DNA of 63,265 bases, counting the filler, from Chrysochromulina tobinii (Eukaryota), in the NCBI GenBank assembly GCA_001275005.1. It is 11 parts of 11 records of this genome, joined end to end, with 100 filler letters (N's around TTAATTAATTAA, not from the genome) between each part and the next. Parts side by side here need not be neighbours in the genome. Positions count along the whole stretch, not along the records: positions 13,269 to 29,961 come from JWZX01000433.1; positions 30,062 to 33,735 come from JWZX01000434.1; positions 33,836 to 38,683 come from JWZX01000435.1; positions 38,784 to 42,145 come from JWZX01000436.1; positions 42,246 to 43,810 come from JWZX01000437.1; positions 43,911 to 46,864 come from JWZX01000438.1; positions 46,965 to 49,313 come from JWZX01000439.1; positions 49,414 to 57,829 come from JWZX01000440.1; 3 more parts are not named here. The stretch is one strand, 5' to 3'. The notes under the pieces are model-generated. The model saw nothing but the letters and a program-made list of their open reading frames with translations, had not been told where the DNA came from and searched no databases. Below are positions 14,924-54,563 of the stretch, piece by piece. Every line of letters starts with the position of its first letter. Position 1 is the stretch's first letter. Both the position numbers and the translations under genes were made by a program.

Positions 14924-16145
14924 TCAGCGGCCCCGCCTGTAGGAGTCTTCAATCTTGCGCTTGCTCACAACCGTCCCAGCCTTGGTGTGCAGCTTGTACG
15001 TGCACTCCTCCATCAGGAATCGGCCGCGCTGGTAGTCTTCAAAGGCCTGCATGAGCAAGCATGGTTGCAGGCATGATTGCATGCATTGGGCCGGTGACGA
15101 TCAAATTCAATCTGACGCAATCAGAGGCACTCAGGGAAGGCATCACGGGAGCCCTCAGCCGTCCTCACCTGCATGATCTGGGCCTTGGTCGACATGACAA
15201 ACGGGCCGTGCTGCACGATGGGCTCCTTGAGTGGAGTGCCCGCAAGGAGCACAAACATGAGGCTGCTGCCACGGTCCGCCCGGATCGCCACGTCGCCGGT
15301 GGCGCCGAAGCGGAGCACCTCGCCCTTCTGTGCCACGACGGCGCTCGAGCCGAAGCTGCCCGCGCCCTCGTACACGTACCTGTGTTTCACAGGCCATCGG
15401 TGTGATTCACAGGCCGTCGGAGCGATTCGAGAGCCACTCAGTAGTACTCCAGAGTCCACCCAGGAGGCAATCAGATGCAATCGGTAGCACTCCAAAGTCG
15501 ATCCAGCGGCAATCTGCGGCAATCAGCGTACACGAAGAGGGTGCTCATGCCGGCCGCACGGGGGTGCACCACCTCAGCGCCCGGCTCGAGCATGTAGTCG
15601 ACATACTGGCAGTGGATGCCCTGCGAGTCCACGGGCGACGTCTGCCCTTGCAGCTCGCCGACCAGCAGCTTGGCTTTCGCCTTCGGTGCCACGTCGATGA
15701 GTGGGAGAGCGTCGGACCTCGCGTTCTGGAACTCGGGCGGGTCGAGTTTGTTCTCGCTCCGCAGGTTGATCCAGAGCTGGAACCCTTGCACGGGGCCATC
15801 ATACGTCGCATCGAACTTCATCCCGTGCTCAATGCCGCTTCCGCACTTGCCCCACTGGAGCTGCCCCTCTGCGAAGACCGCATCCTCGCCCGCAGCCTGC
15901 ATGTTCCACGGATCAGTCGCGAGCCAGCGGCCCTGCTTGAGGTACGGGACTTCGTTGAATCCACGGTGCGGGTGCATGCCAAACTGGGGCATGGACTTCA
16001 TGGGCGCCGGCCCAAAGTGGTGCAGCATGAGGAAGGGGTCTTGCTGCTCGTTCGAAAACTTGTCAAAACAGTCGGTCACGAGGATCTTGCCGGTGCCAAA
16101 AGGGTCCGTCTTGCCAGGACTGGCCTTCTTCTCGACGGTGGCCAT
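14924..16145 (-). CDS. PIR: Pirin-family bicupin, 3 exons (16145-15532, 15379-15169, 15046-14924), about 315 aa
   Basis: DPFLML, HPHRG, LQW...GIEH, GFQLWINL, EPIVQHGPFVM and AFEDYQRG; both GT-AG introns join in frame. Confidence 0.92.
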
Positions 16146-16624
16146 GGCCAAAGGTCGTTGTAAGGGCTGGGGCTGAGCCTTGAGCCTACGGGACAGCTCG
16201 AAGGGGTTGATTTTAAAGAGTGACTCCGCACGCACCCCGACCCGGTGGGGTGGGTGAGCGCCCGGAGGTGTCGGAGGTCTTCGGCAAGGACCTTCACATT
16301 CACGGTCCACGCCCGAGGTTTCGTCACTTGGTCCACGGGGTCATCTATTTAGATCTGGATGGGGGGCTCGCCACCGGGGGCGTGCTTACGTGGTGCGGCC
16401 ATGCGTCGAGCCGTTTCTGCGTGTGGGATCCTTCATACCACGCCACACCATGTTCTTGTGGTTACGTTGTGCTCGCGCAAGTCGTACGCAATTGGTCGTA
16501 CGGCCGCGGGCGCCACAGAGCGTCACATAGTGCAATGTAGATACTTTTCCGTGCTTATCCATACAAACAAAGCACTTTGCACACTTACTGGCACACACTG
16601 AATATGCCCCGGAGCCGGACGCTC

Positions 16625-16701
16625 GGAGCGGAGCCGTCCCTTGAGACGGTGGTGTGGTGAGCGCGGGGGGACCGCGACGAAACTGACTGACTGACTGGAG
16701 C
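16625..16701 (+). repeat. About 75-bp dispersed repeat with short ACTG(A) tail; second copy at 43928-44002
   Basis: GGAGCGGAGCCGTCC..GAGACGGTGGTG..GTGAGCG..GGGGACCGCGACGAAACTGA..CTGGAGC is present on two different contigs. Confidence 0.8.
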
Positions 16702-16715
16702 TTACGCATGGGCCA

Positions 16716-18597
16716 CTAGGATACATGTAGTTGCCCGGTCGAATCATCCCCTTCCTTGCGAAGCTCATAGTCGTTCAGCTGGTGCTTGCCTGCGTCGATG
16801 TGGTGGTCATGAAAGTCGGCAGCGACGGAGAGGTTGGGAGCGGAGCTTGCAGAGGAGCACCTCCACGGCTGCTCATGCACGATCGTACCGTCTGGGCGGG
16901 AAGAGCGTTCCGTTTCGGAGGAATGATGGACGAAACGACCGCTCATCTCGACGCTCACGGTAACGCCGCCACCGCCGCCACCGCCGCCGCCGCTGCCGCT
17001 GGGTATGGAGGTCGCGGCCGCAGCGACGCTGCCGCCCGCGTGTGGCTCGTCTGCGGAGACCGTGCTCACGGACATGTTGCGGAGCCAGTTGTTGACGTCT
17101 TTGCGCCGCAGCTCGACTTCTCTGCGCCTGCGCCTCGTCCACCAGCAGACCAGCGCTAGGCAGCACAGCAGCCCAACAATTGCCGAGAGCACGCCGATGA
17201 TGAGGATGGTGATGTTGTCGCCATCGGCGCTGTTCAGCGCGCACGGCGGCCGTTGCGGGTGCGGCGATGGCGAGCAAGTTGAGACTGGGCCTGAGACGTC
17301 GGTCAGGGTCGTTGAGGAGCAGACAGTACCTCCTGGGGAGCAGACAGTGACTCTGGGGGGGCACTGTCTGTCGACATATAAATTGCCCCCAGAGGAAGCT
17401 TGGTTGGAATACACTTGGGAGTCGATGATTGAGACTGTGCCTCCATTGACACAAACACCGCCGCCAACGGAAGCTCCATTTTCACGTATGGTGCACGATG
17501 AGATTGCCAATGTGCCTCCCGAGATGAAGACGCCGCCGCCAGAGGAAGCTCCATTTCCATAGATCGAGGAACACGTGATCGTGACTGCGCCAGAGGAGAC
17601 ATAGACACCGCCGCCCGAATATGGAGCTGTGTTCCCACTGATGGAGCACGATGAGATGGCCACGGTGCCACCCTGGACGAAGACACCGCCGCCACTCGCA
17701 TAGGTAGCTGCATTTCCATAGATCGATGACGACGAAATGGTGACTGTGCCTCCCCAGACAGCAATACCACCGCCACCCACTCCATCCGTAGTGCATCCTG
17801 CAGCATTACAACTAAATCCAGAGACGTAGCCTCCCGTGATGCTGAGCCCGATCACTTGCACGACGCCCAAAGGACCCGGGTTGATGTTCACTACACGACG
17901 CTGACTCGAATAGCTCGCCTGTGCGTTCAGGACGACCGAGCCTGCCACCGCCGCCTCGAGGACGACGCTCCTGGTGATGTTGAGCTCAGCGCTGAGGGCG
18001 TAACGGCCGGGGGCAAGGACAATGTGGCCGACGGCTGTGTTAGCGAGTGCACTGGTCAGGTCGACGGTGTTGCTCACCGACGCAGTCCCCGCCGTAAGAG
18101 GATACGGCAGTAGCGACGGCGGCGGCAATGGTGAAGGCGGAGGCGGTGGTGGGACGTCCGCAACGGTGGGTGGCGTCACGATTGCAAGTACGGCGATCGG
18201 GATGCCGGTGACACTTGCGAGCATGGCGGTCGCGCTGCTCGGGCTGCTCGTCGCGCTGGCCATCGCCGACCGCACCGAGGCCGCCGCTGCTGTGGTCGTC
18301 TGGATGCTCACGCCGACGATGACGCTGCCCGGCGATATGGTCAACCCCACCGCCGATGGGTCAACCCTTGCCTGAGCCGCGATCGCGCTACTGATCTCGG
18401 CTTGCACGCTCGGGGTGAACGAGGTGACGTCGCCGGCGAGCTCGAGGGTGAATCCGACGACGCTCATCGCCGGCGGCGAGGGCGGCGGCGGCGAGGGCGA
18501 GGGTGGCGGCGAGGGCGAGGGCGGCGGCGAGGGCGAGGGCGGCGGCGGCGGCGAGGGCGAGGGCGGCGGCGGTGAGGGCGAGGGTGGCGGCGGCGAG

Positions 18598-18628
<31 letters not shown>

Positions 18629-21620
18629 ACGGTGGCGACGGCGGCGACGGCGGCGGGGGGCAGGTGAAGCTGGCGTTGACAAAGCCTCGACGGTTGGGCA
18701 GGTTGAAGAACGACCAGCCATCGAGCCAGTTGACGCTGCCGAACGCGCCCTTGTACGTGGTCGCGCTGAAGAAGGCGTCACCGTTCGGCACCGGGTCGAC
18801 GTTCGAGTACGCGGCCGAGCCGCATGCGGGGCGCGGGTCGATCGGAACCATGCTGGTCTCGGTGAACGTGCCTCCTGAGATGAGCGGATCCGCGTTGACG
18901 AAGGCCGGCGCCGTGCCAGTGCATGGCGGCACAATTTGGAAGCCGGCGGTGGGGCTCTGGATGATGTTGTTCGACGAGAAGAACAGGTACGTACCCAGCG
19001 ACGTCGTCGACGCCGGCAGCACCGACTCAATAGTGGGCGCGGTGCTGCCGCCGCTGCTGCAGGTATCGATGCGGATGCCAGGGTGCGTCGCGACATTGGC
19101 GAGGATCATGTTGCCGAACTTGCCGCCCGTGCCCTCGCGCAGGCGCATCATCGCGTTGCCCGGGCGCGTCGAGAGGGCGCCGGCGCCCACGATGGTCATG
19201 CCGTAAAAGGCCGGGTGCGAGCGTGGCAAGCTCCCGTACCTCGAGTCCATCTCCGCGCCGTGGTTGCCCACAGCGCCGAGCAGTGCGAACAGGAACTGGC
19301 CCTTGCCCACGTAGCCATCGTCCGTGTCGAAGGCGTCGTCGCCCGCGAAGAGCACCGACAGGTACTTGACGTTCACCGTGCCGCCGAAGAACTCGAAGCC
19401 GTCGTCCGCATTGTACGCCACCTCGCAGTACGCGACGGTCGTGTTGGAGCCGACGCCGCCGAAGGTGATGCCGTTGATCTCGTTGTTCGCGCCCACGATC
19501 GCGCCGCCGTGCCACACGCGCACGTACTGCAGAGAGCCCGAGTTGTCGGTCGGGTTGATGCCGCCGTACGTGTAGCCGCTGATGCCCTCGATTTCGGTGG
19601 TGGTCGGCATGTTGGTCGGCGCGTTGCCGAGCAGGATGAGGCCGCCCCACTTGCCGCGCTCGCCGAGCGTGATGGCGTTCTCATTCGAGTCCGTGGAGGC
19701 GGTAGCCGAGCTCACGAGCGCCGACTCTGCAAGCACGGACGTGAACGTGATCGGCATCGTCGCCGTGCCCGTCGCAACGAGCGCGCCGCCCTTCAAGACC
19801 ACGAGCGCCGGAGCGGCGACGCCGGTGGGCACGGGCAGCGCAAAGATGGAGGTTCCAGGCGCGATCGTGAGCGTGACACCCGAGGGCACGAAGAGCTGCG
19901 TGGCCATCAGGTACGAAGTGCTCGAAACGAGGCCCGTGCTGGTAGAAAGGGTGCCGCCGAGCATGGTCGTATTCGATGCAAGCGTCGCGAACGGCGAGGG
20001 CGGAATGGCGGTGCACGTGCGGCCAGCCATGTTGCCGCTGCACGCGAGCCACGAGTAGCCGGCGAGCCAGTTGTCCGTCGCGGAGCCGAACGCGCCCTTG
20101 CAGCTCACCGCCGAGAAGAAGGTGTCGCCGTTGGGGGGTGCGTCCTTGGTGCCCGAGCACGCGAGGCCGGTGGCGGACGGCAGAGGGTTGAAGGTGGCGG
20201 AGCCCTCCGCGAGGTCAGTGGGGGCGACCGCAGCGAAGCCGGGGGCGCCAGAAACCGCCGTCCATGTGTTCGCGGGATTGCAGGCGGAAGTGGTGCCGGT
20301 GTGCAGAGCGAACTGCGACGCAGGCTCCGTTGTGTCGATGATGTTGTTGGTCGAGAAGTAGAAGTAGCCGGGGTTCGAAATGCTGACCGAGGCCGCCGGC
20401 AGCGTCTGCGTGTAGCTCAGCGTCGAGCCGCAGTCCTCGAAGAGGAGGCCGTTGCCGTGCGGGTAGGCGAGGATGCCGTTGCCAAACTTGCCACCCGTGC
20501 CGTCGTTGACGTGGATCAGCTCGCCCGTGCGCGCGCCCGCTCCGGTGCCTCCGCCGATCAAGGTGAACGAGTAGAAGGCCGGGTGCGAGCGCGGGGATAC
20601 GTCCTGAGTCACGTTGTTGCCCGAGTCCATCTCCATCGCGTGGTCGCCACTCAGGCCCTCCATGACGAACAGGAACTGGCCCTTGCCAATGTAGCCCTGG
20701 TCCGTGTCGAGGGCGTCGTCGCCCACGAAGAGCACCGACAGGTACTTGACGTTCACCGTGCCGCCGAAGAACTCGAAGCCGTCGTCGAGGTTGAAGGCCA
20801 CCTCGCAGTGGTCGACGACGGTGCCGGAGCCGACGCCGCCGAAGGTGATGCCGTTGATCTCATTGTTCGCGCCCACGACCGCGCCGCCGTGCCACACGCG
20901 CACGTACTGCAGGGAGCCCGACGAGTCGGTCGGGTTGGTGCCGCCGTACGTCTTCGCGGTGATGCCCTCGATCTGCGTGGTGGTCGCCACGTTGGTCGGC
21001 GCGCTGCCGAGGAGGATGAGCCCGCCCCACTTGCCGCGCGTCTCGAGCACGGTATCCGCGCTGGTAGAGTCAGTCGACACCGAAGACGACGACGACACGG
21101 TGGGGTTGAAGGCAGTGAAGGTGATCGGTGAAATAGAAGTGCCAGGTGCGGAGATCCGTCCACCCTTCTCGACGATGAGCGCTGGAGCGCCACCGCTCAG
21201 TGAGGCGGGTGAAGCGAAGATGGTGGTGCCTGGCTCGATGGTGAGCGTCTTGCCAGACGCGACGAATACCTGGTCCGTCAGAACGTATTTGTATGCTGCG
21301 AACTGCGGATCGAGGTCGGCGAATGGCAGCACAAATCAGCACGGTGGCAGTGTCCTTTTGGAAACGTGTTTGAAGGATCCGGTGCGTGCGTACCCAGGTT
21401 TGCGAGTTGATGTTGCCACTGACGTGGATCATGTCCTCGAAGGCTTGTGCGTGAGCCGTCGCCACGGACAACTGCGCGTAGCAATGGGGGCACAGAAAGG
21501 GAGGGTCCCATCAAGACATCACACGGCGCTTGACCAGCCAGGGTTTTCAGGGCTTCAGGATGTCGGGGCTCCCGTTGATCTCCGCAAGAGGCACACCGCG
21601 AGGAGCGTTGTGCGCAGCAT
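16716..21620 (-). CDS. Large type-I membrane surface protein (about 1560 aa): signal peptide, two bacterial-lipoprotein-like beta-helix domains, SPPP linker, GG-rich beta-helix, TM helix
   Basis: Introns 21472-21596 and 21303-21393 give MLRTTLLA|LSVATAHAQA..QTW|FAAYKY. Duplicated motifs GKWGGLILLG, NEINGITFGGVG and DDGFEFFGGTVNVKYL. TM ITILIIGVLSAIVGLLCCLALVCWW followed by RRRRR. Confidence 0.85.
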
Positions 21621-22402
21621 GCTGCGCATCCGAAACGCTTTCGGCTCGACTGTGCTCCCTGTGCTCCTGCGACGCGTCGAGGAGGCAAGCGAAAGCGAAG
21701 AGAGCGCGACCGCGGAGACCCGCCGAAAAGACAAACGCCGACGGCACCGCGTAACTTCAAGTTCTGCCGCGTAATAGTTTCGTTACAGATTTCGTCACTT
21801 ACTGGGAATCTGCGGCCGTCGGCGCCTCAAACGGAGCGTCACCGAACTCCTTCCCCACAAGATTTCACATGATTTCAACGGCATTCAAGTCTAACTACAA
21901 AAGTAAGCGTTCCTGGGTGCCTGCGTGGCTCCGAAGGACGAAGGACCGAAGAGGCGTCAGCCGCCGACCGCGCGCGCGTACCGACCGCGCGCGCGGCATC
22001 GGTGCCCGCGAAGCCCCTCGGCGCCTTACGCCGCCTCGGCCGGGTGTAGGTCAAGTGTAGGTAGACTAGGGGTGCCGGGGCGGGCCGGGCCGGGGGCGGA
22101 ACCGCCAACCGGGGGCGGGGCGGGTTTTTGCGTGATTGCGTCACCGTCCGCGCGCGCGCTCCGACCTCGGGGGGAAACGGGGGGATTGGAGGGGCCGGGA
22201 CCGATTACAATGTAATTGGGGGTTAATGTTATGTAATTGGGGGTTACTTAACTATGGTATACGCAAGATGTTATACGCGTAACGCTATAACAGCCTTAAC
22301 GGCGCGAGTCCCGAGGCGCGGCGGGTACTCCCATGTGCCACCTCAATGCGTCGGGTGAGAGGCTCTTGACCTCTTGTTCGACTGCGGGCACGCCCTGCAC
22401 CA

Positions 22403-23212
22403 TCATTCGTCAAACCTGCCATCCATGCCGCCCACGGCCGTCTCCTTGCGAGGCGAACAGAGGCTCGTCGCTGCCACCGACGCTGCGAGCACGCCCGCGA
22501 CCAGCACGACACCTCCGACGCATGGCAGCGCGACGATGCATGCACCACTGACGCCGCCGAGGCCGTCGACGCGGTGGAGGAGCGTGGCGGCCGAGGCGAG
22601 CCAATGGAGGACGAGCATCGTACAAAGCAGGCCAGTCGCGCGGCGCGGGTACGCGGCCGTCCATCCGATCAGCCCGAGCAGCACGTGCAGCAATCCGAAT
22701 CCGAGGCACTGCAGCGCGTCGACCGCAAACGTCGAGAGCACTGAGCAGCTGGGCGTGTAGAGGGTGCCAGGCAAGAGCGCGCCGCCGAGCACGTCGCCGT
22801 ACATGACGAGCGTCTGCATCAGGCCGGTGCCGATCGCGCTCGCGATGGCCGCCGGGACAAGCGATGCACCGAGCGGCCGGCCCGCGGGCGGCGTCGGCTG
22901 CAGCCCGATGGCACGCAGGCCGTGAATGAGCCGCGCGTAGAGCACGTACGTGGCCCAACGGCTAAGTTCCTGCAAAATGCCACCATAAAGCACGAGCAGC
23001 CACAGCTCGTCGCGAAATGGCACGAGCGCCCACCAGATGATTGCGATGACGAGGATGGCACACAGCCACACGAAGGCGGCGCCGATGGTGAGGATGACGA
23101 GCTCAGGCTGCTTGGCGACGACGGTGACGATGAGCACTGCATACGGCGCGAACGCAGCCGCGAGCACGCCCGAGAAGGAGAGCACGGAGGCGGAAGACGC
23201 CCGAGAGGGCAT
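22403..23212 (-). CDS. APH1: Gamma-secretase subunit Aph-1
   Basis: About 7 TM segments; AFAP..P..VIL.I.AAF.WL, LQE.SRW, PGT, and the two conserved His (LLHV, VLHW). Confidence 0.85.
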   Translation of the reverse strand: MPSRASSASVLSFSGVLAAAFAPYAVLIVTVVAKQPELVILTIGAAFVWLCAILVIAIIWWALVPFRDELWLLVLYGGILQELSRWATYVLYARLIHGLRAIGLQPTPPAGRPLGASLVPAAIASAIGTGLMQTLVMYGDVLGGALLPGTLYTPSCSVLSTFAVDALQCLGFGLLHVLLGLIGWTAAYPRRATGLLCTMLVLHWLASAATLLHRVDGLGGVSGACIVALPCVGGVVLVAGVLAASVAATSLCSPRKETAVGGMDGRFDE

Positions 23213-23588
23213 TGCACCTCGGCTGCGGAAAACCACAACAAGTCAAGTCAAGTCAAGGTCAAGTCAACTTGCCTGTTTTCCCGGGATTATTGGCGCACTG
23301 CGGAGTCTCTGCGGTTCAAAAACACCAACCGGTAAGATAGTGACCACGCAATTTGTGACCACCCCACGGAAAAGGAACTCCCAAGCAGGACACACACCAT
23401 CGCTGTCACGCTGTGGTGATCTTCTGCTCGTCGAGGAGACATCGGAAGACGCTGTCAGGCCCTGGCGTCACACTGTCGCATGGGCCGCCGTGGTCAGTCA
23501 CGACCTCTTCGAGGCTCTTCGAGGATGGATCGGAAGACCGGATCATCGCCGCCGTTGCTCCCTGCGCGGCATGCCGGCACACGTATAC

Positions 23589-24709
23589 TCACTTCTTGAG
23601 GACGTCTATCATGTCCTGGAAGCTAAGCACGAACCAGTCGGCGCCAGCCTTCACCTTTTCGCGCACGGCGATGCCGCCGAAGCCGATGAACGCATCTGCA
23701 CCACCCTCAATGTCGCGCGCCTCCATGTCTGTCGCGCCGTCCCCGATCATGACGACCGTCTTGTACCCGCGCTGTGCCTTCAGATCGGCGACCACCTGCA
23801 AACAAGACGCCATCGGGGCACCATGGCACACACTCAGACGGCACTCGGACAGCACTCGGACAGCACTCGGACAGCACTCGGACAGCACTCGGACAGATCT
23901 CGGACAGATCTCGGACAGCACTCGGACAGATCTCGGACAGATCTCGGACAGCGCACACACTCAGACGGCACTCGGACAGCACTCGGACATCGTCGCGCGG
24001 CCATACAAGGCACCAGCACCAGCAGCGGCACCGGCACCGATCGGGTCGGCGACCCACCTTTGCCTTGCCACCCGCACGCGAAGTCGGTTCGGAATCAAGG
24101 TGGCCTTTGAAGCTGCCGTCGGCGTTGAAGAGGAGCGTATTTGCGTAGATGTCCGTCTTCGCCACGTTGACCTGCGCCGCGATGGGCTCAATGAACTGAC
24201 GGAAGCCTGCGAGGGAAGCCGCGCCGTGGAAGCCTCTTGAGAATTGCGAGGCACGGGAAACATAGATATAGGGAGTTTTGCGTTTGCCGCCGCGGGCGAT
24301 TCGCGCACGCACCGCCCGACACAAAGTAGACGTGCTGGCCGCGTGAGTGCAACACCGCGATCAGGTCCGCAACGCCATCTGTGAGCTTCAGCGGCTCCTC
24401 GGCAAGCATACTCGTCACCTGCTGCTGCGAGGGCTTCATTGCGCTGAGGCGGAGCGCGAGGGCCTCGTGGAACGGCATCGAACCGCCCATCGCTTGCGCG
24501 GTCAGCGCCGCAACCTTGTCACCGCAGCCGAGGTAGGCGGCGAGGTCGTCGATGCCCTCGGACGTGACAACGGTGCTGTCGACGTCGAAGCAGACAGCCT
24601 GAGCAGTGCGTAGCGCGGTCTGCGCGTGCGCGACGCGCAGCCCGACGCTCGTGCTCATCGCGAGCGCGCCGCAGCGGAAGGCCGACGCTCTTTGGAACAA
24701 AACCTGCAT
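23589..24709 (-). CDS. PSPH: Phosphoserine phosphatase (HAD), 3 exons (24709-24313, 24206-24058, 23795-23589), about 250 aa
   Basis: CFDVDST, EGIDDLA, AMGG..F.EAL..RL, VSGG|FR, GGK and IGDGATD; introns splice in frame. Confidence 0.95.
23830..23990. repeat. Intronic minisatellite of CACTCGGACAG/GATCTCGGACA units
   Basis: Tandem 11-mers inside PSP intron 23796-24057. Confidence 0.9.
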
Positions 24710-25410
24710 TTCCTCACGTTCACGTTCTCGCGTCAACTCGAGTCAAGTCAAGTCAAGCTTCCGGAGCACATTCGATAGGCTTCCGTCTGGTTGTTTGTAG
24801 TTTATGTATAGACTTGACTTGATCTCGCAAGACGCACGACCACAGACAGGTCGTCAGGTCCCGTGGAGACACAACGTTGAGGGCACGGTGTGCGGCGCAC
24901 ACGCACACGCAGACACCAACACGCCGCACACAAACACAGATACCAGGAGATACCGGGAAGAACAGACACAAAAGAGGGCCCGGGCGAGAGACCGGGAGTG
25001 TCAACTAGGTGCATTTCCTCGGAGGCGCGCGACCCTGTGAAAGGGCAAAATGGGGAAGGGGGGAGGGCCTCCGTCGCGAGATGATTGTGAACGAGCTGAG
25101 TTCCGTGAAGGCCCGGCGGTGAGTATGTATTTATGTCGAAGTACGAAGACCGTCAATTTGTCTACAATGCACGCGACAAGGCGACATCGGACATGGGACA
25201 TCGGACACCGCACTCCGCTCGAGACCTACACCTCACACACGCAAGATGATGCGAGATGATAGCGAGATGATGATGCGTGCAAAGTTTCCCATGATTCATG
25301 AAGTTTACCGACCATCCACACACCGTGAGACTCCACGCACACTAACAATAAAGCTCTGTACACCTCAGCACTATATGCACCCACAAATCGTCTCCACCCC
25401 GGCGCTCTTT

Positions 25411-26646: not shown

Positions 26647-26845
26647 CACGAGGGCACACAATCGTATCTCGCGGCTTGAGATGCGCTGCCCCGTGTCGGC
26701 GTCTAGGTGCACAGGATGATCTAAGGTCTCACCGGAACGTACCAAACGTGGTGACGTCCAGGGCGGGGCGTCTTGCTTCGGTTTCAGTGTAGGGAACAGA
26801 CGCGATCTCGCGGAGGGAGCTCTCCGCCTCGCAGGCCGGCGTGCT

Positions 26846-29198
26846 ATGCTTCTTGTCCTCGCGATGTGCACGCTGCTCGGGAGCGTGAGTGGCGCACGCA
26901 ACGCTGCGTCGCGCATCATGCAGCAGCGGGGGTTTGGTCTTTCCACCTCGCTGGCGATGGAGGATCGTGCGGCCGTCGTGCGAGCCGTTGGCCGCAGCCG
27001 CAGCCGCTTCCTCGCAAATGCTCGTGGCATGATCGTGCCAACCGTGGCGGAGGGCGTCTCCGCCGCAAAGATGACGGCGACGATGCCACTGTCCAATGCA
27101 CCTGGCCCGTCGCTCGCCGAGCTCGAGGCGGCGGCCATCGAGGCCGAGGCGGCCGCGGCGGAGGCGGAGGCGGCCGCGGATGCCGCGGAGGCCGAGGCAA
27201 AGGCCGCCGCGCAGGCGCTGGCCCAGATGGAGGCGGCGGCGGGCGCGAGTGCCGGCGGCGCATCCGCGCTGGCGCTTGATGCGGCCGCGCTCGCCGATCT
27301 CGAGGCGCAGATTGCTGCGCAGGGCAACGTGGTGCGCGAGCTCAAGACGGCGCTCAAGGATGGTAAGGCGGAGAAGGCGGCGGTGGACGCGGCGGTTGGG
27401 GTTCTAGTCGCGCTGAAGGCGAAGCTGCCGGCCGAGGCGGCGGTGGCCGCGCCCAAGAGCAAGAAGGAGACCAAAGCCGCCGCCCCGGCCGCCGCCCCGA
27501 CCGCCGCCCCGACCGCCGCCCCGGCCGCCCCGACCGCGAGCGCGCCGGCGACGGTTGGCGGCGATGGCGGACTCGCGGTCTCGATTGACGACGTCATTAA
27601 CGTGTGCAAGCGGCGCGGGATCATCTTCCAGTCCAGCGAGGTGTACGGCGGGTACGCGGGCTTCTGGGACTACGGCCCCCTGGGCGTCGAGCTGCGCGCC
27701 AACATCAAGCAGGCATGGTGGCGCGACATGGTCCATCGGAGAGATGACGTGGTTGGCCTCGACTCCTCCATCATCGGCTCGCCCAAGATTTGGAAGGCCT
27801 CAGGGCATATCGACGGCTTCTCGGACCCGATGGTAGACTGCCGGACGTCCAAGCTGCGCTTCCGTGCCGATCAACTCTTTTGGTCACGCGCCGAAGTCGA
27901 TGGGCAGCTCCTCGGGTACGTTTCGCTGCTCGAGACGGATGACATGGATGAGCTCGTGCTCGAGGCGGCGACCAAGCTGCAGCGCAAGGCGGGGCTGCGT
28001 GGCACTCTGAGCTGCACGCCGGTCAAGGACTTTACCGAGGCCAGCGACGAGGAGCAGTCCCTCGTCCCCTCGCCCGCTACGGGCGAAGCAGGCTCCCTCA
28101 CGCCGCCGCGCGCCTTCAACTTGATGTTCCAAACGAACGTTGGAGCCATGGTCGACCAATCGTCGGTCGCGTACCTCCGGCCGGAGACTGCGCAGGGCAT
28201 CTTCACGAACTTCAAGAACGTGGTCGCGACGGGGCGCGTCAAGGTGCTCCCATCGAATGATCTCCGATGACCTCGGATGACCTCGGATGACCTCGGATGA
28301 CCTTCGATGACCTCCGATGACCTCTGATGACCTCTGATGACCTCGGCTGACCTCTGATGACGGCGGGCGCGTGCAGGTGCCCTTTGGGATCGCGCAGATC
28401 GGGAAGGCCTTCCGCAACGAGATCACACCTCGTAACTTCATCTTCCGCTCGCGAGAGTTCGAGCAGATGGAGATTGAGTACTTCATCGACGACCAGGACG
28501 CCACCTGGCCCGTCGAGCACGAGCGCTGGCTGCAGACTATGTGGAACTGGCTCAAGTCGATCGGGCTGCGCGAGGACCTGATGGCGCGCGACGTGCACGA
28601 GAGTCACAAGCTCGCCCACTACGCGCGCGCTTGCACCGACATCATGTTCACATTCCCATTCGGGACCCAGGAGCTCATGGGCTGTGCGGCGCGCGGCAAC
28701 TTCGACCTGACGCAGCACGCGGCCGCCTCCGGCAAGTCGATGGAGTACTTCGATGACGAAACCAAGGCCAAATACGTGCCCCACGTCATCGAACCCTCGA
28801 TTGGCGTCGACCGTCTCATGCTGGCCGTCCTGTGCTCAGCCTACGCGGAAGATGAGGTGGGCGGGGAGAAGCGCTCTGTGCTCAAGCTCCATCCCCGCCT
28901 CGCGCCGATCAAGGCAGCGGTGCTCCCGCTGGTCAAGAACAAGCCCGAGCTCGTCGAGAAGGCGCAGGCGATCTACAAGCGTCTCCAGCGGCGCTACTAC
29001 GTGACGTACGATGACTCCGGCCAGATTGGTCGGCGCTACCGGCGCATGGACGAGGTGGGGACGCCGTATTGCATCACGGTCGACTTCGAGACCCTAGAGG
29101 ACGACAGCGTCACCATCCGCGAGCGTGACTCGACGCTGCAGCGCCGTATCAAGCTGCCCGAGCTCCTCGAGTTCCTCGAGGAGCAGATCGATGCCTAG
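26846..29198 (+). CDS. GARS: Glycyl-tRNA synthetase (alpha2 type, bacterial-like core), organelle-targeted, with WHEP domain; intron 28244-28376
   Basis: [69 protein letters not shown] and IGRRYRR.DE.GTP. Confidence 0.96.
28255..28361 (+). repeat. Intronic (GATGACCTCN)n decamer array
   Basis: About 10 tandem units filling the GlyRS intron. Confidence 0.9.
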
Positions 29199-30153
29199 TG
29201 AGGCAGCTCCTCGGACCTGGCACGATCTCGAATCCGAGCTGCTCGAGGCACTGGAAATGCCCCTCTGAGATCTGCTGAGTCTGCTGCGATCTGCTGCGAT
29301 CTGCTGCGATCTGCGGCGCACGCCGTGCACTTTGAGTGAGGTCTGACGGCGAGAAAGCCGCGGCTGCCCGCCCTCGTCGCGTGTAGCGTGCAAGGTGCAT
29401 GCCACATGGCGCTTCATACTACGTACACGTCGAAACACGTGCAAGGCCGAACACGCAACAGGCCAACACCAGCACCGGATCCGGAACAGGGCGGACACGC
29501 GGTGTGCCGTGTCGTGTGCTGCGTCGGTATGCGGTGAACGGTCGGTGTACGGCGAGCGAGACCGCTGAGACCGCGAGACGCAGAGACGGCAACCTAGAAC
29601 CGTTGACGCTCATGCGAGCTGCGAGACGCGCCACGCGACGTCGCTCGTCGGGACGCCGAGACCGGCGCCGGCGCGGTGTGATCACGGTGGCTGTGCGGGG
29701 CCGCTGCGCGCACACCGGTCTCGGTCCAACCTCCGGACGGGACGCCACCGCGGACTCGATCTCGGAGCGCGAGGAGCCGGACCGGACGGACGGCGGTCTG
29801 ACTGCTCTGTCCTCCGGACGTCCGGAGCCGAGCGCGCGTGTGGAGGTCGATAGTAGATGCGGCATGCGCGCGATTCATCAGTGTAAGGTACGCCATACGC
29901 AGCGTATTTTGTTTTTGCGTATTTTCAGCATTTTGCGTATTGCGTATTTTTGACCCGCATTNNNNNNNNNNNNNNNNNNNNNNNNNNNNNNNNNNNNNNN
30001 NNNNNTTAATTAATTAANNNNNNNNNNNNNNNNNNNNNNNNNNNNNNNNNNNNNNNNNNNNCATCTGGGCGAAATCCAGGAAATCTCACCTCCTTAGCGG
30101 CGCCCCGCTTGCTGGCCTGTTGCCAGTAGTCATGTAAGCGCGCCCCCCCCGGG

Positions 30154-42145: not shown

Positions 42146-42245
42146 NNNNNNNNNNNNNNNNNNNNNNNNNNNNNNNNNNNNNNNNNNNNTTAATTAATTA
42201 ANNNNNNNNNNNNNNNNNNNNNNNNNNNNNNNNNNNNNNNNNNNN

Positions 42246-45474: not shown

Positions 45475-45477
45475 ACG

Positions 45478-45654
45478 AAGGAGATACGAGGGAGATACGA
45501 GGGAGAACCAGGGAGATAGCCACGGCCAGGACCACGGCCTGCCCTGAACGAAGCAGCATCGGCGAGGAAACGGAAGAGGGGGACCAGGGAGATACGAGGG
45601 AGATACCAGGGAGAACCAGGGAGATACCAGGGAGATACCAGGGAGATACCAGGG
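45478..45654. repeat. (GGGAGATACCA)-like tandem units plus a duplicated GCCACGGCCAGGACCACGGCCTGC block
   Basis: Directly visible downstream of the TF stop codon. Confidence 0.75.
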
Positions 45655-46964: not shown

Positions 46965-48149
46965 ACGGACGTGGAGCTCATCGGGGCGTCTGAGGACGCG
47001 TGGATCCTGGAGGATCCCGAGTGGGTGGCGGGGGTGGAGGGCGGCCGGGACGTGCTGAGCAAGGGGGTGCTCACGGTGGACAAGGTGGAGGGGCGCGTGC
47101 GCGGGCTGAATCTGCGCGGGAAGTGGAAGGGGGAGGCGCTGCCGGCGTCTGTGGCGAGGCTGACGGCGCTGCGAGAGCTCACGATGACAGAGTGCAGGTC
47201 GCTCAAGTCGGTCGCGGACCTCCCCGCGTCGGTGACGCAGATTCTTGGGTACGCCTTTTACGGCTGCAACTCGCTCGCGTCGATCACGCTCCCCGCGTCG
47301 GTGACGCAGATTGGTAGGCACGCCTTTATCAGCTGCTCGCCGCTCGCGTCGATCACGCTCCCCGAGTCGGTGACGCAGATAGATGAGTACGCCTTTTCCG
47401 GCTGCACCTCGCTCGCGTCGATCACGATCCCCAAGTCGGTGACGCAGATTGGTGAGAAAGCCTTTGAAGGCTGCACCTCGCTTTTGTCGATCACGATCCC
47501 ATCGGCGACCCTCGTCGACCCATCGGCCTTCGGCGAGCACACTCAAGTCACCTTCATGGCTCTGGAGCTCATCGGGGCGTCTGAGGACGCGTGGATCCTG
47601 GAGGATCCCGAGTGGGTGGCGGGGGTGGAGGGCGGCCGGGACGGGCTCTGCTGGGTGCTCACGGCGGACAAGGAGGGGCGCGTGTGCGGGCTGAATCTGA
47701 GCTGGGGGAAGTGGAAGGGGGAGGCGCTGCCGGCGTCTGTGGCGAGGCTGACGGCGCTGCGAGAGCTCACGATGAAAGCCTGCAAGTCGCTCAAGTCGGT
47801 GGCGGTCCTCCCCGCGTCGGTGACGCAGATTGGTAAGGACGCCTTTCAGGGCTGCAAATCGCTCGCGTCGATCACGATCCCCGCGTCGGTGACGCAGATT
47901 GGTAAGGGCGCCTTTGACGGCTGCAAATCGCTCGCGTCGATCACGCTCCCCGAGTCGGTGACGCAGATTGGTATATTCGCCTTTAACGACTGCACCTCGC
48001 TCGCGTCGATCACGCTCCCCGCGTCGGTGACGCAGATTGGTGAGCGCGCCTTTTACAACTGCACCTCGCTTTTGTCTATTACGATCCCATCATCGACCGT
48101 CGTCGACCCATCGGCCTTCAGCGCGTACACTCAAGTCACCCGCGCATAG
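46965..48149 (+). CDS. BspA-type (LRR_5) leucine-rich repeat protein, 5'-partial
   Basis: Repeats SITLPASVTQIGxxAFxGCxSL; whole module duplicated with 591-nt period. Confidence 0.92.
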   Translation, partial: TDVELIGASEDAWILEDPEWVAGVEGGRDVLSKGVLTVDKVEGRVRGLNLRGKWKGEALPASVARLTALRELTMTECRSLKSVADLPASVTQILGYAFYGCNSLASITLPASVTQIGRHAFISCSPLASITLPESVTQIDEYAFSGCTSLASITIPKSVTQIGEKAFEGCTSLLSITIPSATLVDPSAFGEHTQVTFMALELIGASEDAWILEDPEWVAGVEGGRDGLCWVLTADKEGRVCGLNLSWGKWKGEALPASVARLTALRELTMKACKSLKSVAVLPASVTQIGKDAFQGCKSLASITIPASVTQIGKGAFDGCKSLASITLPESVTQIGIFAFNDCTSLASITLPASVTQIGERAFYNCTSLLSITIPSSTVVDPSAFSAYTQVTRA

Positions 48150-48846: not shown

Positions 48847-49413
48847 TGCTGGAGGGAGTGGAAAAAAGAGGGTGGACTTGCATTCGAGGTGTACTAAGGA
48901 AGACTTGTCCTCTTCGTCGAAAGTTACAGGAACGCACACGTCACTCAGTCGGTTTCGTTCTACCATGGTAGGTCCAGACCAAAAATGGGGCCCCCCGATG
49001 GCCCGAAGCGCTCCGGCCGCTTCAAAAGAGGGCGGCCGAGGCGCTGGGCCCCATCAAGCCGGCGGCGGCCACGGAAGGCGACGACGAGCACGCGGCCAAG
49101 CTGCCCGAGGCGCTCAAGACATTCAAGACACTGGCCAAGACCGAAGCCATCGAGGCAGCGTGCGGCCGGCTGCACGAGCTCGAGCTGAACGTGGCGCGCG
49201 CCCCAGACTCCGAGGAGGCCGTCGGCGCGCTGGGTGCGCAGCTCGTCGTGGTGGATCAGGTGATGGCCACCGAGATTAAAAAGCGCACCGAGGGCGTGAG
49301 CGAGGAGGCGGCGNNNNNNNNNNNNNNNNNNNNNNNNNNNNNNNNNNNNNNNNNNNNTTAATTAATTAANNNNNNNNNNNNNNNNNNNNNNNNNNNNNNN
49401 NNNNNNNNNNNNN

Positions 49414-49726
49414 CGGCTCCGGTTGCGTGTACGAGGTCGACCCTCGCGCCGCCGCCCCGGGCGCCTATCTGCTGCGCGCCGAGCCCAACACGACGCTGGT
49501 TGAGCTGCTCGCCCAACAGCTCGATCCCGCCATATTTGGCGAGGTGGTCTCCTTTAGTAGCTTCGCCGAGACGCTTCTGACCATCGACCCCGACGGACGC
49601 CCGACTGCGGCGGAGGCGCTGCAGCACCCGTGGATGGCCTTGTATGGTCGTCTTTCCCCGATCGATCCCCCGATCGTGCGTGTGACGCCCGCGTCTTCGG
49701 ACGAGGTCCCTCTGACGGCGAGATAG
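49414..49726 (+). CDS. C-terminal fragment of a Ser/Thr protein kinase
   Basis: Subdomain XI motif FAETLLTIDPDGRPTAAEALQHPW. Confidence 0.7.
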
Positions 49727-50833
49727 CCACGAGGCGATGGAGGTGGCGGTGATGGCGGTGGCGGCGATGGCTGTGGGGGCGACGGCGAAGGCGGCCAGGG
49801 CGGTGGTGGAAAAGGTGGGGGAGGCACGGACGTCGCGCGCATCGAACTGGCGACGAGTGTCTCTGACGAATCTCAGCCCCGAGATAGCCCCGAGATTCGC
49901 GCGCATCGAACTGGCGACGAGTGAGTGCCGTCGCGGCATGGTGGCATGGACCTCTCATTGAAAGTGGCGCTGAGTGAGTGCCATCGCGACAGGGTGGCAC
50001 GGAGTTGAAAGTGGCGCACACCGTGCAGGTGTACAACTCGGTGCAGTTGTACAGTCTCGGTGCCGTGCAGGTGTACAACAGTGCGGACTGCGGTGTGCCC
50101 GATCGGAGCGACCTCGGTACACTTAGGTCCCGAGCGGTATGTAAAAGGTGTACAACAGTGCGGTGTGTCAGTAGAGCGACCTCGTGGACTGTGAGGTCCT
50201 GACATAGTCCCTAAGAGGTGCTGCTACCGTCGACTGTGCAGGCCGAGCGTCTTCTCGTGCATGCATCGATGGGTTTTTCTCGTTCAAAGGTAGCGTTGGG
50301 TTGGAGGAGGCCGTTGATGAACCATGCGTTGAACAGCGCCAGCCGCCACGCGCTCGCCCACCACTCGGTCCCGGTTTGGCCACCGTTCCAGGCGCGAGGT
50401 GTAGCGTTCCACCGAGATCTGAGTCCGACGGGGCCGCGGCATTGTTTCCGCATTCCGGCACCTGGCCTGTTTGGGTTCGATGTCGTGGCGCCGGGTAGCG
50501 GGTTGATCCTTCCGGGAGCGGGACTCGAGAACCGCGTGTGCAGACTGCAGTGCGGTTACCTGTGGCCGTCATGTAGCTTGTAGGGCTTACATGTTATTGC
50601 TCCCAAGAAATTACCCTAAGAGTGCGAGCGGACGACTACCTTAAGCCACGACGCAGTATAGCTTCAGTAAACCCCTGGTATACTGCGGAAGCGCCGTCCA
50701 ACATACACCCGACGTTTGCTGCGAAAGTACGAGGTAGCCCGGTACGTACTCGCGCGAGTGCCGCGAGAGCACAGGGGAGACTCTCTCAACTTTGAGCGTT
50801 CAAAGGCACAGAGACTGAGACAGAGGACGCGTC

Positions 50834-52700
50834 TCAAATTTTGAGCTCGCGTGCGCTACCGCCGCCATGACTGAGTCGGTTGAACCAGCTGGTGGGGGGC
50901 TTGCGCTCCTCGCCCTCTGGCCGTCCGGGTGTCTCTCGGATGCTGTCGATGATGTCCGTGCCGTCCTCCTCAATGGTCGGCTCACTCAGCTCCTGCGCGG
51001 CCATCACCTGTGCAAGCAGCAGAGACGGTCGGGTCGACACGCTGATGAGAGAGGATTGCCATTCCGGTCGGACTCAGCGGCTCATTAGGAGCTCATAAGT
51101 AGCTCATAAGTAGCTCATCAGTAGCTCATCAGTAGCTCATCAGTAGCTCATCAGTGGCGCTCGCACCTGTAGCCGGCTGAGGAGGTAGATGAGATTGCCA
51201 CCCAGGGCGAGGATCAGCCCCAGCAGACACGCGGGTCGCGTCGTATCCCCCATGCAAAGCGCCGCGAAGATGACGATCGCCACCTGGGATCACGGAGCGT
51301 CGTACCGAGCACGCGACTCAGTGGGTAACTTGTGAGAGTTCATCATCATGCAATCAACATCGCCATGCAATCAGCATGCAATCAGCATGCGATCTGCATA
51401 CAAGCACGCCCTCAGCATGCAAGCACGCACCTTGGAGAGGAACGTCGTCCCGAGCACAAACGAGGCCGAGACGGCCTTCGCGAGTTGCAAGCCCATGTAG
51501 TGGTACAAAGAGTTGAGGAAGGCGGTGCACAGCGTATACACGATCTCGGCGCGCCGGATATGCGGAATCGCGTGGTATCCGAAGAGCCAGAGCTCGTACC
51601 TGTCGAATGCGTGATCATGGTGCTTAAAAGTCTGTGTGGCATTCCGTGGTCATCTGTGGCCATCAGTGGCAGTCCGTGGCATTCCGTGGTCATCAGTGGC
51701 AATCAGCGCGCACGAGAGGACGAGCACCATCGCCGCGACTGATGAGGGAGGTCATCAGAGTGTCATCAGTGGCAATCAGCGCGCACGAGAGGACGAGCAC
51801 CATCGCCGCGACGAAGCCGACCGCGTTGTTGACGAAGACCATCGCTTGCAATGAAAGCACGATCGGCTCCTTGGGATTCGTCAATAGATGCCGCTTGAGG
51901 ACCCCTTCCCACACCATCAGCAGCATCGAGAGGATCGTCAATAAGGTGCCTAGCCAGTCGTACAGGTAGTCGGCCGCCGCGTAGATCATCACGCCGAGAA
52001 CAAGGAAGATGAGCCCGATGATACTCAGGCAGGAGGTGCGATAGAGGACGTCGGGCAGCACGAACTGGCAGACCATACCACAACGTGGTCAAATGCATTG
52101 CACTCGGATGTATCGGACCGCAATCAGATGCAATCAGATGCAATCAGGTGCAATCAGGTGCAATCAGGTGCAATCGGGTGCAATCGGGTGCAATCGGATG
52201 CAATCAGGTGCAAACAATCACATCCCCCGCACCTGCTCGACAACCATCGTGAACATCGGCGTGAGCTGTCGCCACACGATGACGTTCGTCACTGAGGTCC
52301 GGTGCAGGGCCTCCAGCAGCAACAGGTACGCTCCCGAGTGCAGCATAGCTGCGGGGAGCCATCGCCTCACATCATCGCTCGAGCCGACTCGGATGCCTAA
52401 TTAGGCAAGATTGGAGGGTGATATTAGGCGAGATTGGAGGCGAGATTGGTGTGATGAGGTGAGCGACGCGGGAAAGGCATTCGATCAAACGCAAGCAATC
52501 GCAATCAATCGCAATCAAAGGCCCATCGGAGTCGAGCGCCAAGACGGGCGCTTACCCTTCCAGCTGCGTACTCCGCAGCATGCGAGACCACACGAAGCCT
52601 CTGGCGAACAGCAGCCTCCCCTGTTGCCGCTCTCCTCGAGCTTTTCGTACGCGTCGACGCCGGCGTCGCCGCCGCCGCCGCCGCCACTGCCGCCGCCACT

Positions 52701-52736
<36 letters not shown>

Positions 52737-54563
52737 TCCGCCACCTCCGCTGCGGCTACCACTGGCGCCGCTCCGGCCGTCGCGGGGTGCCCTTGCCTTC
52801 TTGGCGTCCTTCACCCTCTCCTCTTCGCCTTTCGAACCGTTCAAGCACGAGCATGGGTTGCGACAGCACTCGTAGAGGGCCGACGTGATGGCAACACTTG
52901 CCTGGGAGTGGCAACAGGCGGCGAGCGCGCCGTTGACGATGAGCAACGTGATGCACGAGGCGCCCATCTGAACAACGCGGAGCGATGGCGGGAAGGCGGC
53001 TCAGCGGTGGCGGGAAGGCGGGAGCACGGGATTAGTGTTGCCATCCGTCGTGTTCACTTTAGTATCAGATCAGAGGAGACCCTCAGAGGCCATCAAGGGA
53101 TCCACGCGAGATCGCACCTCGCTCAATCAGAGGTCATCAGAGACTCTCGCGGGCGGCAACCGCGGCCAATCAAATAAAATCCGAAGCCATCAAGAGCAAG
53201 CCCCAGCAATCACATGCAATCAGAGGCCCTCGCACAGCACCTGGACGGCTGCAACGAAGGCGGGCAGCGGGATCGCACGCAGGATGAGCTTATTGAACAC
53301 GATGGTCGTGAACGAGCATAGCATGTACGCCGCCGCGGTGGAGAGAACATTGGAGGCATGGCGCATGTTCTCTGAGATGCAACCTCCCGCCTTGAGCTCC
53401 TTGAGATTGAGCATCCAATTATGGATGAAGAAGAGGAGGAGGGCGATGCCCGCCAAAAGGATGGGTAGCCAGTACTCGTGGATCAAATGAACCTGAGAGC
53501 CATCAGAGGCCATCAGAGCCATCAGAGGGGCGATCGAAGGCCATCAGAGGGGTCAGAGGCCATCAGAGGGGTCATCAGAGGCCATCAGAGGGGTCATCAG
53601 AGCCCATCGTGGCGGCTCACCTGAGCTACTAGTGCACAGTTACGGGAATCTACCCATGCATCCCCAACCTTACGCACCGTCAAGGTGCCGAAGGTGCAGT
53701 ATTCATACGGAGCGGGCGGCGGCGACGCCACTGGCGTCGGGGGGGGCGAGAAGTTGGAAACGAGCTCCATATGGTAATCACCCTCGATACCTGATGAGGC
53801 AGGCAATCAGAGGTCATCAGAGGTCATCAGAGGTCATCAGAGCTCCATATGGTAATCACCATCGATACCTGGGTCGGTGTCGATGAGAGGAGCGAAGTCG
53901 GGATCGGCGGCGGGAGTGGCGGCCGGAGCGGCGGCGGGGTCGGCGTCCGGGTCTGTGGCGGGAGTCGTGGCGAGAGTGGCGGCGGCGGCGGCGGGCGGGG
54001 GCGGAGAAGATGAAGTGTGGGGAAGTCTGTGTAGTGCCCACCCTATGCTGCCGTGCGGCCGAAGCGACACGCACGGGCACGTGGCAGGGTGCGGGGCATG
54101 ATGCAGGGCAGCTCGACCGCATGAACTCTGGATTGCGTTCACACTCGCCCTGCGTGGCCCACAGGACGCACGGTACCTGCGGGTCATCTTCCCCAGCCTC
54201 GCAGTCGGGCACCTTGCGGAGCGTCTCGCAATCCGGACACTGCTTGCACGGCCTGTAGGTGCACGTTTCCTGCAGCGGCACCCCGGTCTCTGCGCACCAC
54301 GACTTACACTCGACTGTCGGTCCTAGTAGCTGCTGCTGCTTCACGTCATGTGCGGACTCCTGTTGCTGCTGCAATAACCGTCGCTCGGGCGAATGCGGAC
54401 GCTCCTCTTCCTCCTCCTGGAGGAGTAAGAGGCGGGCCTCCTTGCGGCCGACACGTGCCGTGTCCAGTTGCAGCGCCGAGGATGCGTCCGGCGAAAGTTG
54501 CCAGTGCGCCACAGCTCGGACAGACGAGGCCGCCAATAATAAAGTCACGGGCGGAATCCGCAT
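50834..54563 (-). CDS. Nucleotide-sugar transporter (TPT/GONST-like) with N-terminal signal peptide and ShKT domain, about 10 exons
   Basis: Introns 53791-53868, 53493-53620, 52968-53240, 52397-52555, 52065-52232, 51600-51786, 51284-51430 and 51008-51166 join in frame. Motifs YMLCSF..IVFNKLIL..P.P..VAAVQ, RWLP, IVWRQLTP..TM.VE and MVFVNN. ShKT-like C..WA..GECERNPEFM..SCPASC. The splice near 54030-54080 is unresolved. Confidence 0.75.

Follow-up and report, generated by a model that had tools for sequence, protein, structure and literature searches.

Where spliceosomal introns come from is a long-standing question. The best-understood route is that of introner transposons, which bring one splice site along and borrow the other from the duplicated target. 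The question is raised here by a stretch of 63,265 nucleotides (nt) from an assembly filed under Chrysochromulina tobinii (the window in the following), in which introns of a GlyRS gene, a pirin gene and a putative transporter gene are filled with tandem 10-11-mers around a CTGAT core. Did these arrays grow in place, or do they belong to a process that makes introns? The initial annotation had proposed a shared intron-making or intron-expanding process rather than random minisatellites. We find a recurrent module of tandem CTGAT units, a pyrimidine stretch and a common CATCAG end. One canonical copy is spliced out of the transporter message, and the units lie on the transcribed strand with a strong bias. 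In our view the arrays belong to short intron modules, whose body they form; this family was rather likely added by insertion or copying and not grown in place.

RNA contigs skip the array introns

The window consists of 11 contigs with ~62% G+C. The ten spacers between them, one of which lies at 13169-13268, each have a 12-base AT-only linker between two N44 runs, and any feature crossing such a spacer is an artefact. RNA contigs from four runs (X12, X13, X14 and X17, each a separate study) were placed on the contigs 13269-29961 and 49414-57829. Arrays were detected using Tandem Repeats Finder (TRF).

TRF reports arrays at every place for which introns with tandem 10-11-mers had been described, and the named units are visible in the sequence. 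In total 14 introns with GT..AG ends, reading CT..AC in the minus-strand genes, are skipped by RNA contigs (12 by direct joints; 51600-51786 and 53791-53868 by pairs of pieces from one contig each), so that their transcribed strand is known. Nine of the 14 carry 10-11-mer arrays, one of these (23796-24057) being built from another 11-mer without GAT core. The introns 21303-21393, 21472-21596, 24207-24312 and 54048-54176 are array-free. CTGAT occurs 35 times on the transcribed strand across the 14 introns versus three times as ATCAG, and all three ATCAG lie within CATCAG end motifs.

The RNA contigs bear out the splicing of the cited array introns at GT..AG ends. Seven of the eight introns match the RNA exactly within the ambiguity of the cut, whereas 51284-51430 is predicted from its GT..AG ends and is absent among the listed joints. 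The annotated genes do lie on different contigs, but only on two: the transporter gene is alone on 49414-57829, and GlyRS and pirin share 13269-29961. GlyRS is confirmed by the Pfam domains WHEP-TRS, tRNA-synt_2b and HGTP_anticodon on the open reading frames (ORFs) flanking its intron, pirin likewise by Pirin and Pirin_C on the ORFs flanking 15380-15531. The transporter assignment, in contrast, goes back to one weak exon-level EamA match (E 1.3e-4), below the Pfam cut-off. The introns and one further array are listed below.

53791..53868, minus strand: transporter intron 1, 78 nt; TRF array 53806-53842, period 10, 3.7 copies, 100% matches.
53493..53620, minus strand: transporter intron 2, 128 nt; CTGATGGCCT / CTGATGACCC array with 8 CTGAT; TRF array 53499-53608, period 10, 10.6 copies; RNA joint in X12, X13 and X14.
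52968..53240, minus strand: predicted transporter intron, ~273 nt, GT..AG, new in this analysis; scattered degenerate CTGAT / TTGAT copies; an RNA contig piece (record 5) ends exactly at 52967, the joint itself is absent among the listed joints.
52397..52555, minus strand: transporter intron, 159 nt; short GATTGC repeats and an unrelated 12-mer repeat; TRF arrays 52484-52518 and 52403-52449; RNA joint in X12 and X13.
52065..52232, minus strand: transporter intron, 168 nt; CTGATTGCAC array; TRF array 52120-52213, period 10, 9.4 copies; RNA joint in X13 and X14.
51600..51786, minus strand: transporter intron, 187 nt; an X17 RNA contig (record 25) joins 51597 to 51785.
51284..51430, minus strand: predicted transporter intron, GT..AG; CTGATTGCATG array; TRF array 51364-51403, period 11, 3.6 copies; flanking exons backed by the codon model.
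51008..51166, minus strand: last transporter intron, 159 nt; CTGATGAGCTA array; TRF array 51080-51155, period 11, 6.9 copies; RNA joint in X12, X14 and X17.
28244..28376, plus strand: GlyRS intron, 133 nt, GT..AG; GATGACCT-type units; TRF array 28253-28361, period 10, 10.9 copies; skipped by RNA contigs of X12 and X17 (joint 28241/28375, cut +2).
15380..15531, minus strand: pirin intron, 152 nt; four irregular GATTGC copies (2 CTGAT) and a 20-mer repeat; TRF arrays 15504-15528 (period 10, 2.5 copies) and 15381-15428 (period 20, 2.4 copies); RNA joint in X12.
15047..15168, minus strand: second pirin intron, 122 nt; one CTGATTG and two further GATTG/GATCG copies; RNA joint in X12 and X14.
23796..24057, minus strand: intron of a HAD-hydrolase-like gene (Pfam Hydrolase at 24191-24742), 262 nt; CTGTCCGAGTG array without GAT core; TRF array 23831-23989, period 11, 14.9 copies; RNA joint in X13, X14 and X17.
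29265..29318, plus strand: transcribed, non-intronic array after the stop codon of GlyRS, in the 3' untranslated region (UTR); CTGCGATCTG, period 10, 5.5 copies; an RNA contig with fewer copies skips 52 nt.

The pirin intron 15380-15531 had been described as a GATTGCC array, which does not hold: the four GATTGC copies are irregularly spaced and stand next to the 20-mer repeat. Moreover the sense array in the GlyRS 3' UTR implies that the arrays are not strictly confined to introns.

Two further period-11 arrays (ACGAGGGAGAT and ACCAGGGAGAT units) are located at 45475-45654, just behind a Zn(2)-Cys(6) cluster ORF. They show the CTGAT core on neither strand.

A canonical module makes up transporter intron 1

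Intron 53791-53868 as a whole corresponds to a single canonical module. It comprises three CTGATGACCT units plus a CTGATT unit, followed by a pyrimidine-rich stretch and CATCAG. The intron is bracketed by a host duplication of 29-32 nt with one mismatch, whereby the GT donor starts the upstream copy. An RNA contig (X12, record 6) joins 53783 to 53862, and precise removal of the module leaves an open frame.

Repeats of adjoining sequence are seen in other introns of the window, too. Intron 51600-51786 contains an internal canonical end, CCTCCCTCATCAG, and a flanking duplicate of 35-50 nt that takes in the donor and the first units along with the exon end. In the second pirin intron, 15047-15168, 8-9 nt of the upstream exon end recur at the intron end. 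The exon following intron 23796-24057 opens with a copy of the first 13 nt of this intron, interrupted by a 1-nt gap.

The modules recur in metagenomic loci

Public metagenomes were scanned on both strands for four CTGATK cores at period 10, yielding at least 145 stretches. All counts of metagenomic loci and arrays given here are among the scan matches listed, of which 143 loci were analysed. Together with the window they hold 238 unique arrays, and the GC content of most of the 143 loci is 58-70%. The transporter stretch itself is present almost whole in DNA runs of mixed-culture metagenomes and partly in freshwater RNA runs. RNA depth over arrays sums contigs of many loci and was not used as a measure of expression or intron retention.

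We accept the source organism as haptophyte-related, judging from its CDC123 protein: the best named relatives are those of Emiliania huxleyi and Prymnesium parvum, both with 49% identity and far above animal or fungal matches. GlyRS is uninformative for taxonomy, being a bacterial-type enzyme with named matches in stramenopiles, a pavlovophyte and Opitutales.

Among the TRF periods in 61 non-redundant loci of at least 1 kb (210,567 nt), none is more frequent than period 10, which accounts for 142 arrays. It is followed by period 12 (59 arrays), periods 3 and 15 (25 each) and periods 11, 20, 21 and 30 (19 each). The same units and the same end are found in genes for GlyRS, the transporter, ALAD, an NDUFS1-like protein, CDPK, XPG, Thoc5, PP2C, a sulfatase and others.

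The arrays share a CATCAG end

Among 212 arrays with adequate flanks, CATCAG is located within 45 nt downstream of 47 versus 14 upstream. In 33 arrays it occurs at one identical offset, giving the ending CTGATK-(A/G)CCTCCCTCATCAG and thus a common 13-nt end. GT follows directly after CATCAG in 28 of the 47 arrays. CAG being the 3' splice site, the A of the last CTGA lies 16 nt upstream of the 3' junction in the best-preserved modules.

Module-free introns of the window with RNA support end in GCAG, ACAG, CCAG, TCAG or TTAG and have no pyrimidine tract. Hence the CATCAG end is specific to the module and does not represent the general 3' splice-site consensus of the organism. Where the unit reads CTGATG, and only there, the end forms a 7-nt inverted match (CTGATGA / TCATCAG).

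Host sequence is duplicated around the modules

For each array we took the longest exact repeat that the preceding 90 nt share with the following 110 nt. An exact repeat of at least 12 nt flanks 102 of 210 arrays versus 55 of 1000 control sites in the same loci. These repeats are mostly unique host sequence, and many contain CAG|GT.

We defined canonical modules as at least two units plus the CATCAG end, which applies to 39 unique copies. In 16 of the 39, CATCAG is directly followed by a sequence of at least 10 nt that is found again within the 110 nt upstream, versus 205 of 2996 controls. The duplications are 11-43 nt long without preferred length. GT opens 11 of the 16, AG stands in front of 8, and 5 extend into the CTG of the first unit. 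The inserts measure 30, 31, 40, 41, 50, 60 or 100 nt, i.e. they vary in steps of about 10 nt in front of a constant end. One of the 16 sits inside intron 51600-51786. For this subset (16 of 39, 11 with GT) one splice site would be recruited from the duplication and the other one is the end of the element; RNA shows splicing of this kind at 53791-53868. Removal of one repeat copy together with the insert restores a coding-like open frame in seven of the 16, one of them being this RNA-verified intron.

Blocks of exon end, donor and array are present in two to four tandem copies at three loci (L001:2370-2700, L010:2470-2650 and L019:2500-2830), such that several identical candidate donors stand in a row in these genes.

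Restoration of the open frame was also tried as a general test for intron creation. It fails for most arrays (9 of 84 restored), because stop codons of adjacent arrays fall into the tested segment, and was kept for canonical single modules.

The core lies on the sense strand

According to the initial annotation the core always reads on the transcribed strand. Apart from a few exceptions this applies far beyond chance, in the RNA-supported introns of the window (35 versus 3) as well as in three metagenomic comparisons (140 versus 10, 13 versus 1 and 27 versus 1).

For the first of these we trained a codon log-odds model on ten array-free ORFs of the window. It calls the right strand in 13 of 15 held-out exon segments (GlyRS, pirin, transporter and others). 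The model places 140 arrays in sense and 10 in antisense; 77 are uncallable and four too short. Counted per locus, with the window as one, 69 loci are all sense, 6 all antisense and 2 mixed. This bias is conservative because sense arrays hold TGA in all frames, and array remnants in the flanks push towards antisense calls.

The second comparison used Pfam on 300 ORFs of 22 loci, including all loci called antisense that have ORFs of at least 110 aa. Matches were obtained at 14 loci; the domain-bearing ORF is on the array strand in 13 and on the opposite one in a single case. The antisense calls of the codon model at L001 and L039 are overturned thereby, with the domain-bearing ORF of L039 lying 1.2 kb from the array. 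At L006 (ALAD), L034 (NDUFS1-like) and L038 (AAA) the two parts of a split Pfam profile meet exactly at the array. One clear antisense array was found (L057, 1211-1247). It is 36 nt long, a multiple of three, and lies inside a long TIR-domain ORF. As the decamer read in antisense has no stop codons, such a copy could survive as coding sequence.

For the third comparison all TRF arrays with a period of 9-12 and at least three copies were considered (159, of which 68 triggered the scan). Among 56 strand-called arrays outside the scan trigger, CTRAY is found in sense in 27, in antisense in one and not at all in 28. Among the latter are GC-rich 9- and 12-mers of coding type as well as CTGAGTGC-type units, which are in sense, too.

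CTRAY is the general spliceosomal branch consensus, and based on this likeness CTGAT may serve as branch point. Selection for branch points and selection for stop codons (TGA/TAA) are inseparable by sequence, every CTRA containing a stop.

A possible route from module to intron

The module consists of n tandem units of 10-11 nt with CTGAT(G/T) and, where best preserved, a pyrimidine stretch and CAG, and would thereby supply one or several branch points, the tract and the acceptor. The duplicated host target would supply the GT donor. If a module landed in sense behind a GT, and everything between this GT and the insertion point became duplicated, the segment from GT to CAG could be spliced out and the message would be restored. 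Only sense insertions in genes would then be spliced and survive, so that the strand bias might result from selection. Later on, slippage and unequal exchange would let arrays grow, shrink and duplicate together with their neighbours, leading to introns with several arrays.

Judging from general properties of such processes, target-primed or microhomology-primed copying appears to fit better than cut-and-paste transposition, in view of the constant 3' end, the unit-wise variation of the 5' end, the long and variable duplications and the CTG shared at the 5' junction. A more specific variant seems rather improbable to us: the 3' part of an excised intron would be reverse-transcribed at a nick in a transcribed gene, the complementary DNA would rejoin at CTG microhomology, and slippage at the branch-point unit would generate the arrays. 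If true, introns would be gained by retroposition without a dedicated transposon, and the constant 3' end, the variable unit number and the long, variable duplications would be accounted for.

Weighing insertion against other explanations

A number of observations speak against an origin by insertion. The metagenomic loci were picked by the motif itself, possibly stem from several related species and were de-duplicated only in part; the controls of the repeat test are inflated by repeat-rich loci. No flanking repeat of at least 12 nt is seen at 108 of 210 arrays, no duplication at 23 of the 39 canonical modules and no nearby CATCAG end at 165 of 212 arrays. In many cases, L001, L010 and L019 among them, the flanking repeats clearly belong to a higher-order tandem duplication of spacer and array, for which no insertion is needed. 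A sense open frame is restored in 9 of 84 repeat-flanked arrays (antisense in 5 of 84), below the 399 of 2000 obtained for random sites on a random strand. The end remains CATCAG no matter whether the last unit is CTGATG or CTGATT. Without such covariation the inverted match to the unit has to be regarded as a sequence motif and not as a proven terminal inverted repeat. An all-against-all BLAST of the fetched loci yielded no filled/empty module pair. Nine pairs share at least 300 nt of unique sequence; seven of these are either overlapping parts of one contig or 100% identical stretches of a different assembly. In the sole diverged pair (L113/L140, 96% identity) the arrays are identical. Finally, in GlyRS relatives with protein identities of 93-99% the gene calls likewise end within the GlyRS intron, after identical first read-through codons. 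Because no empty site was found and most arrays lack a footprint, insertion is something we infer. The proposal of a shared intron-making or intron-expanding process is supported in part, namely by the common 3' end and the flanking host duplications at unrelated loci, which such a process predicts and independent minisatellites do not.

Several of these points would equally be expected if the arrays were ordinary minisatellites, expanded by slippage in old introns and seeded at the branch-point region. Sense copies would then be harmless extra branch sites with TGA in all three frames, the bias would be due to selection alone, and the flanking repeats would go back to unequal exchange. The head-to-tail units, the change in copy number (a shorter 3' UTR array in an RNA contig) and the sense array in the 3' UTR (29265-29318) agree with this, as do the many arrays without CATCAG end or flanking repeat, the common higher-order repeats of spacer and array, the rare frame restoration (9 of 84) and the stability of arrays between alleles of 96% identity and between the GlyRS relatives. 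Yet a plain minisatellite predicts neither strand preference nor shared sequence, whereas 140 versus 10, 13 versus 1 and 27 versus 1 were counted and the same units occur in unrelated genes. It also leaves unexplained why 33 unrelated arrays carry an identical 13-nt end at an identical offset, and why host duplications start exactly after CATCAG, with GT first in 11 of 16. Moreover L017, L060, L043 and intron 53791-53868 of the window have no second upstream array for unequal exchange, and removal restores the frame there. We regard minisatellites as a serious but doubtful explanation. It is very improbable that the arrays are selected RNA elements, be it binding arrays for proteins (splicing enhancers, or UGAUGA plus CUGA motifs of the kink-turn / C-D-box-like type) or precursors of small RNAs. 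UGAUGA resembles a C box and CUGA a D box, and CTGATGA contains both; the strict sense orientation would fit as well. Array-bearing RNA contigs are abundant, including those of poly(A) libraries, a weak point given that depth sums many loci. On the other hand, no Rfam match reaches the gathering score anywhere in the window (0, families of small nucleolar RNAs and ribozymes included). The common CTGATTGCC units have no UGAUGA box, only CTGAT is shared, the unit sequence outside the core varies freely between loci, and the copy number ranges from 3 to more than 14. Hardly more probable are classical introner DNA transposons, similar to miniature inverted-repeat transposable elements, that would be cut and pasted by a transposase via CTGATGA...TCATCAG terminal inverted repeats. 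Canonical modules with CTGATG units do have such seven-base inverted termini, but these do not covary, the 5' end varies in whole units, and no transposase partner turned up, though no search was aimed at one. Furthermore the duplications of 11-43 nt are variable, in contrast to the fixed 3-8 nt given for dinoflagellate elements in the available text of bioRxiv 10.1101/2020.10.14.339549.

Age of the GlyRS intron and truncated gene calls

Concerning relatives, which the initial annotation had proposed to inspect for missing introns, the GlyRS intron turned out to be common to those with 93-99% identical proteins, and no empty site is present among the fetched loci. Being shared among close populations, this copy is not very recent. 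Prokaryote-style calls of GlyRS (26720-28267 and the proteins P0001-P0006) end a few codons into the intron, with the tails VLPSNDLR or VLPSDDL. One protein (P0007) reads across the junction and may be derived from a transcript. The calls ending in the intron indicate that arrays systematically truncate gene predictions in such bins. Prokaryote-style gene callers cut array genes at every array, and introner surveys would miss the family after repeat masking or low-complexity filtering.

Comparison with known systems

Introners have reportedly been described in Aureococcus and Micromonas by Huff, Zilberman and Roy in 2016. New introns of Daphnia, reportedly studied by Li et al. in 2009, are said to be flanked by short direct repeats and were explained by a model of double-strand-break repair. 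As in our modules, host direct repeats bracket the new intron; unlike the Daphnia filler, the inserted sequence here is a specific recurring module and not random. Non-LTR (long terminal repeat) retroposons end in 3' tails of tandem repeats, and their target duplications are variable. They have in common with the modules a constant 3' end, a variable 5' end, duplications of variable length and microhomology at the junction; this applies to the modules, for which we know of no reverse transcriptase partner, poly(A) or other tail. As for haptophytes, Read et al. are said to have noted 10-11 nt tandem repeats in introns of the E. huxleyi genome in 2013, but are not known to have analysed strand, end motif or duplication. 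Our literature search on repeats in haptophyte or Emiliania introns and on haptophyte introners gave no account of such arrays.

The introner-like elements of the dinoflagellates Symbiodinium and Polarella glacialis (bioRxiv 10.1101/2020.10.14.339549), as far as the available text goes, are alike in that similar short sequences act as introns in many unrelated genes with a strong orientation bias. They are unlike in that the body here is a branch-point-like array of 10-11 nt units in variable number and not a unique sequence. Compared with their fixed duplications of 3-8 nt, ours are variable (11-43 nt), the inverted termini span only 7 nt and do not covary, and most copies have no recognisable footprint.

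A survey of 8,716 genomes (PMC12130899) lists, in the text and tables at hand, three families of 5-45 copies for E. huxleyi and nine for Pavlovales sp. CCMP2436, mostly with unknown mechanism; these families belong to the same host lineage as the arrays described here. One E. huxleyi family with introns of ~70 nt is annotated as 'co-opt 5' carry 3'' with '10bp terminal direct repeats'. Chrysochromulina tobinii has 0 introner families in the table of that survey. Its main text contains no haptophyte name and no 'tandem repeat', and decamer arrays, the CATCAG end and long duplications are not described in its text and tables apart from the supplement files 13 and 14. E. huxleyi is among the species with 25-50% repetitive intron content according to the accessible part of bioRxiv 10.1101/283549. 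The genome papers of C. tobin, Diacronema, Isochrysis and Chrysotila are silent on intron repeats in the portions available.

Taken together, the modules follow the logic of introners but differ from known ones by the array body and the unusually long, variable duplications. The module is very small, brings only what the 3' half of an intron needs and works with weak, arbitrary GT donors from coding sequence. If insertion holds true, the mechanisms of intron gain would be widened to a process that is not transposase-like, and the repeat-richness of GC-rich haptophyte introns would be explained. Furthermore the family would provide a natural series, from 1 to more than 14 branch-site units, for the effects of branch-site number and spacing on splicing. 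We rate the interest for the field of intron gain as moderately high, limited by the lack of a filled/empty pair.

Other features of the window

The minus-strand region 16719-21335 contains an open frame of 1,539 codons without Pfam match and the array-free introns 21303-21393 and 21472-21596. RNA contigs of two runs cover it with a summed depth in the thousands, far above its neighbours, which points to either very high expression or wide sharing among the organisms of the samples.

Coding tandem repeats are present at three places: 123-nt units in 11.5 copies encoding Armadillo repeats (61614-63036, minus strand), 183-nt units encoding SBBP beta-propeller repeats (56295-57118, plus strand) and 69-nt units encoding BspA-type leucine-rich repeats (47220-48053, plus strand). 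Finally, a 77-nt unit is repeated 1.9 times at 59471-59617, and its consensus shows internal inverted symmetry.

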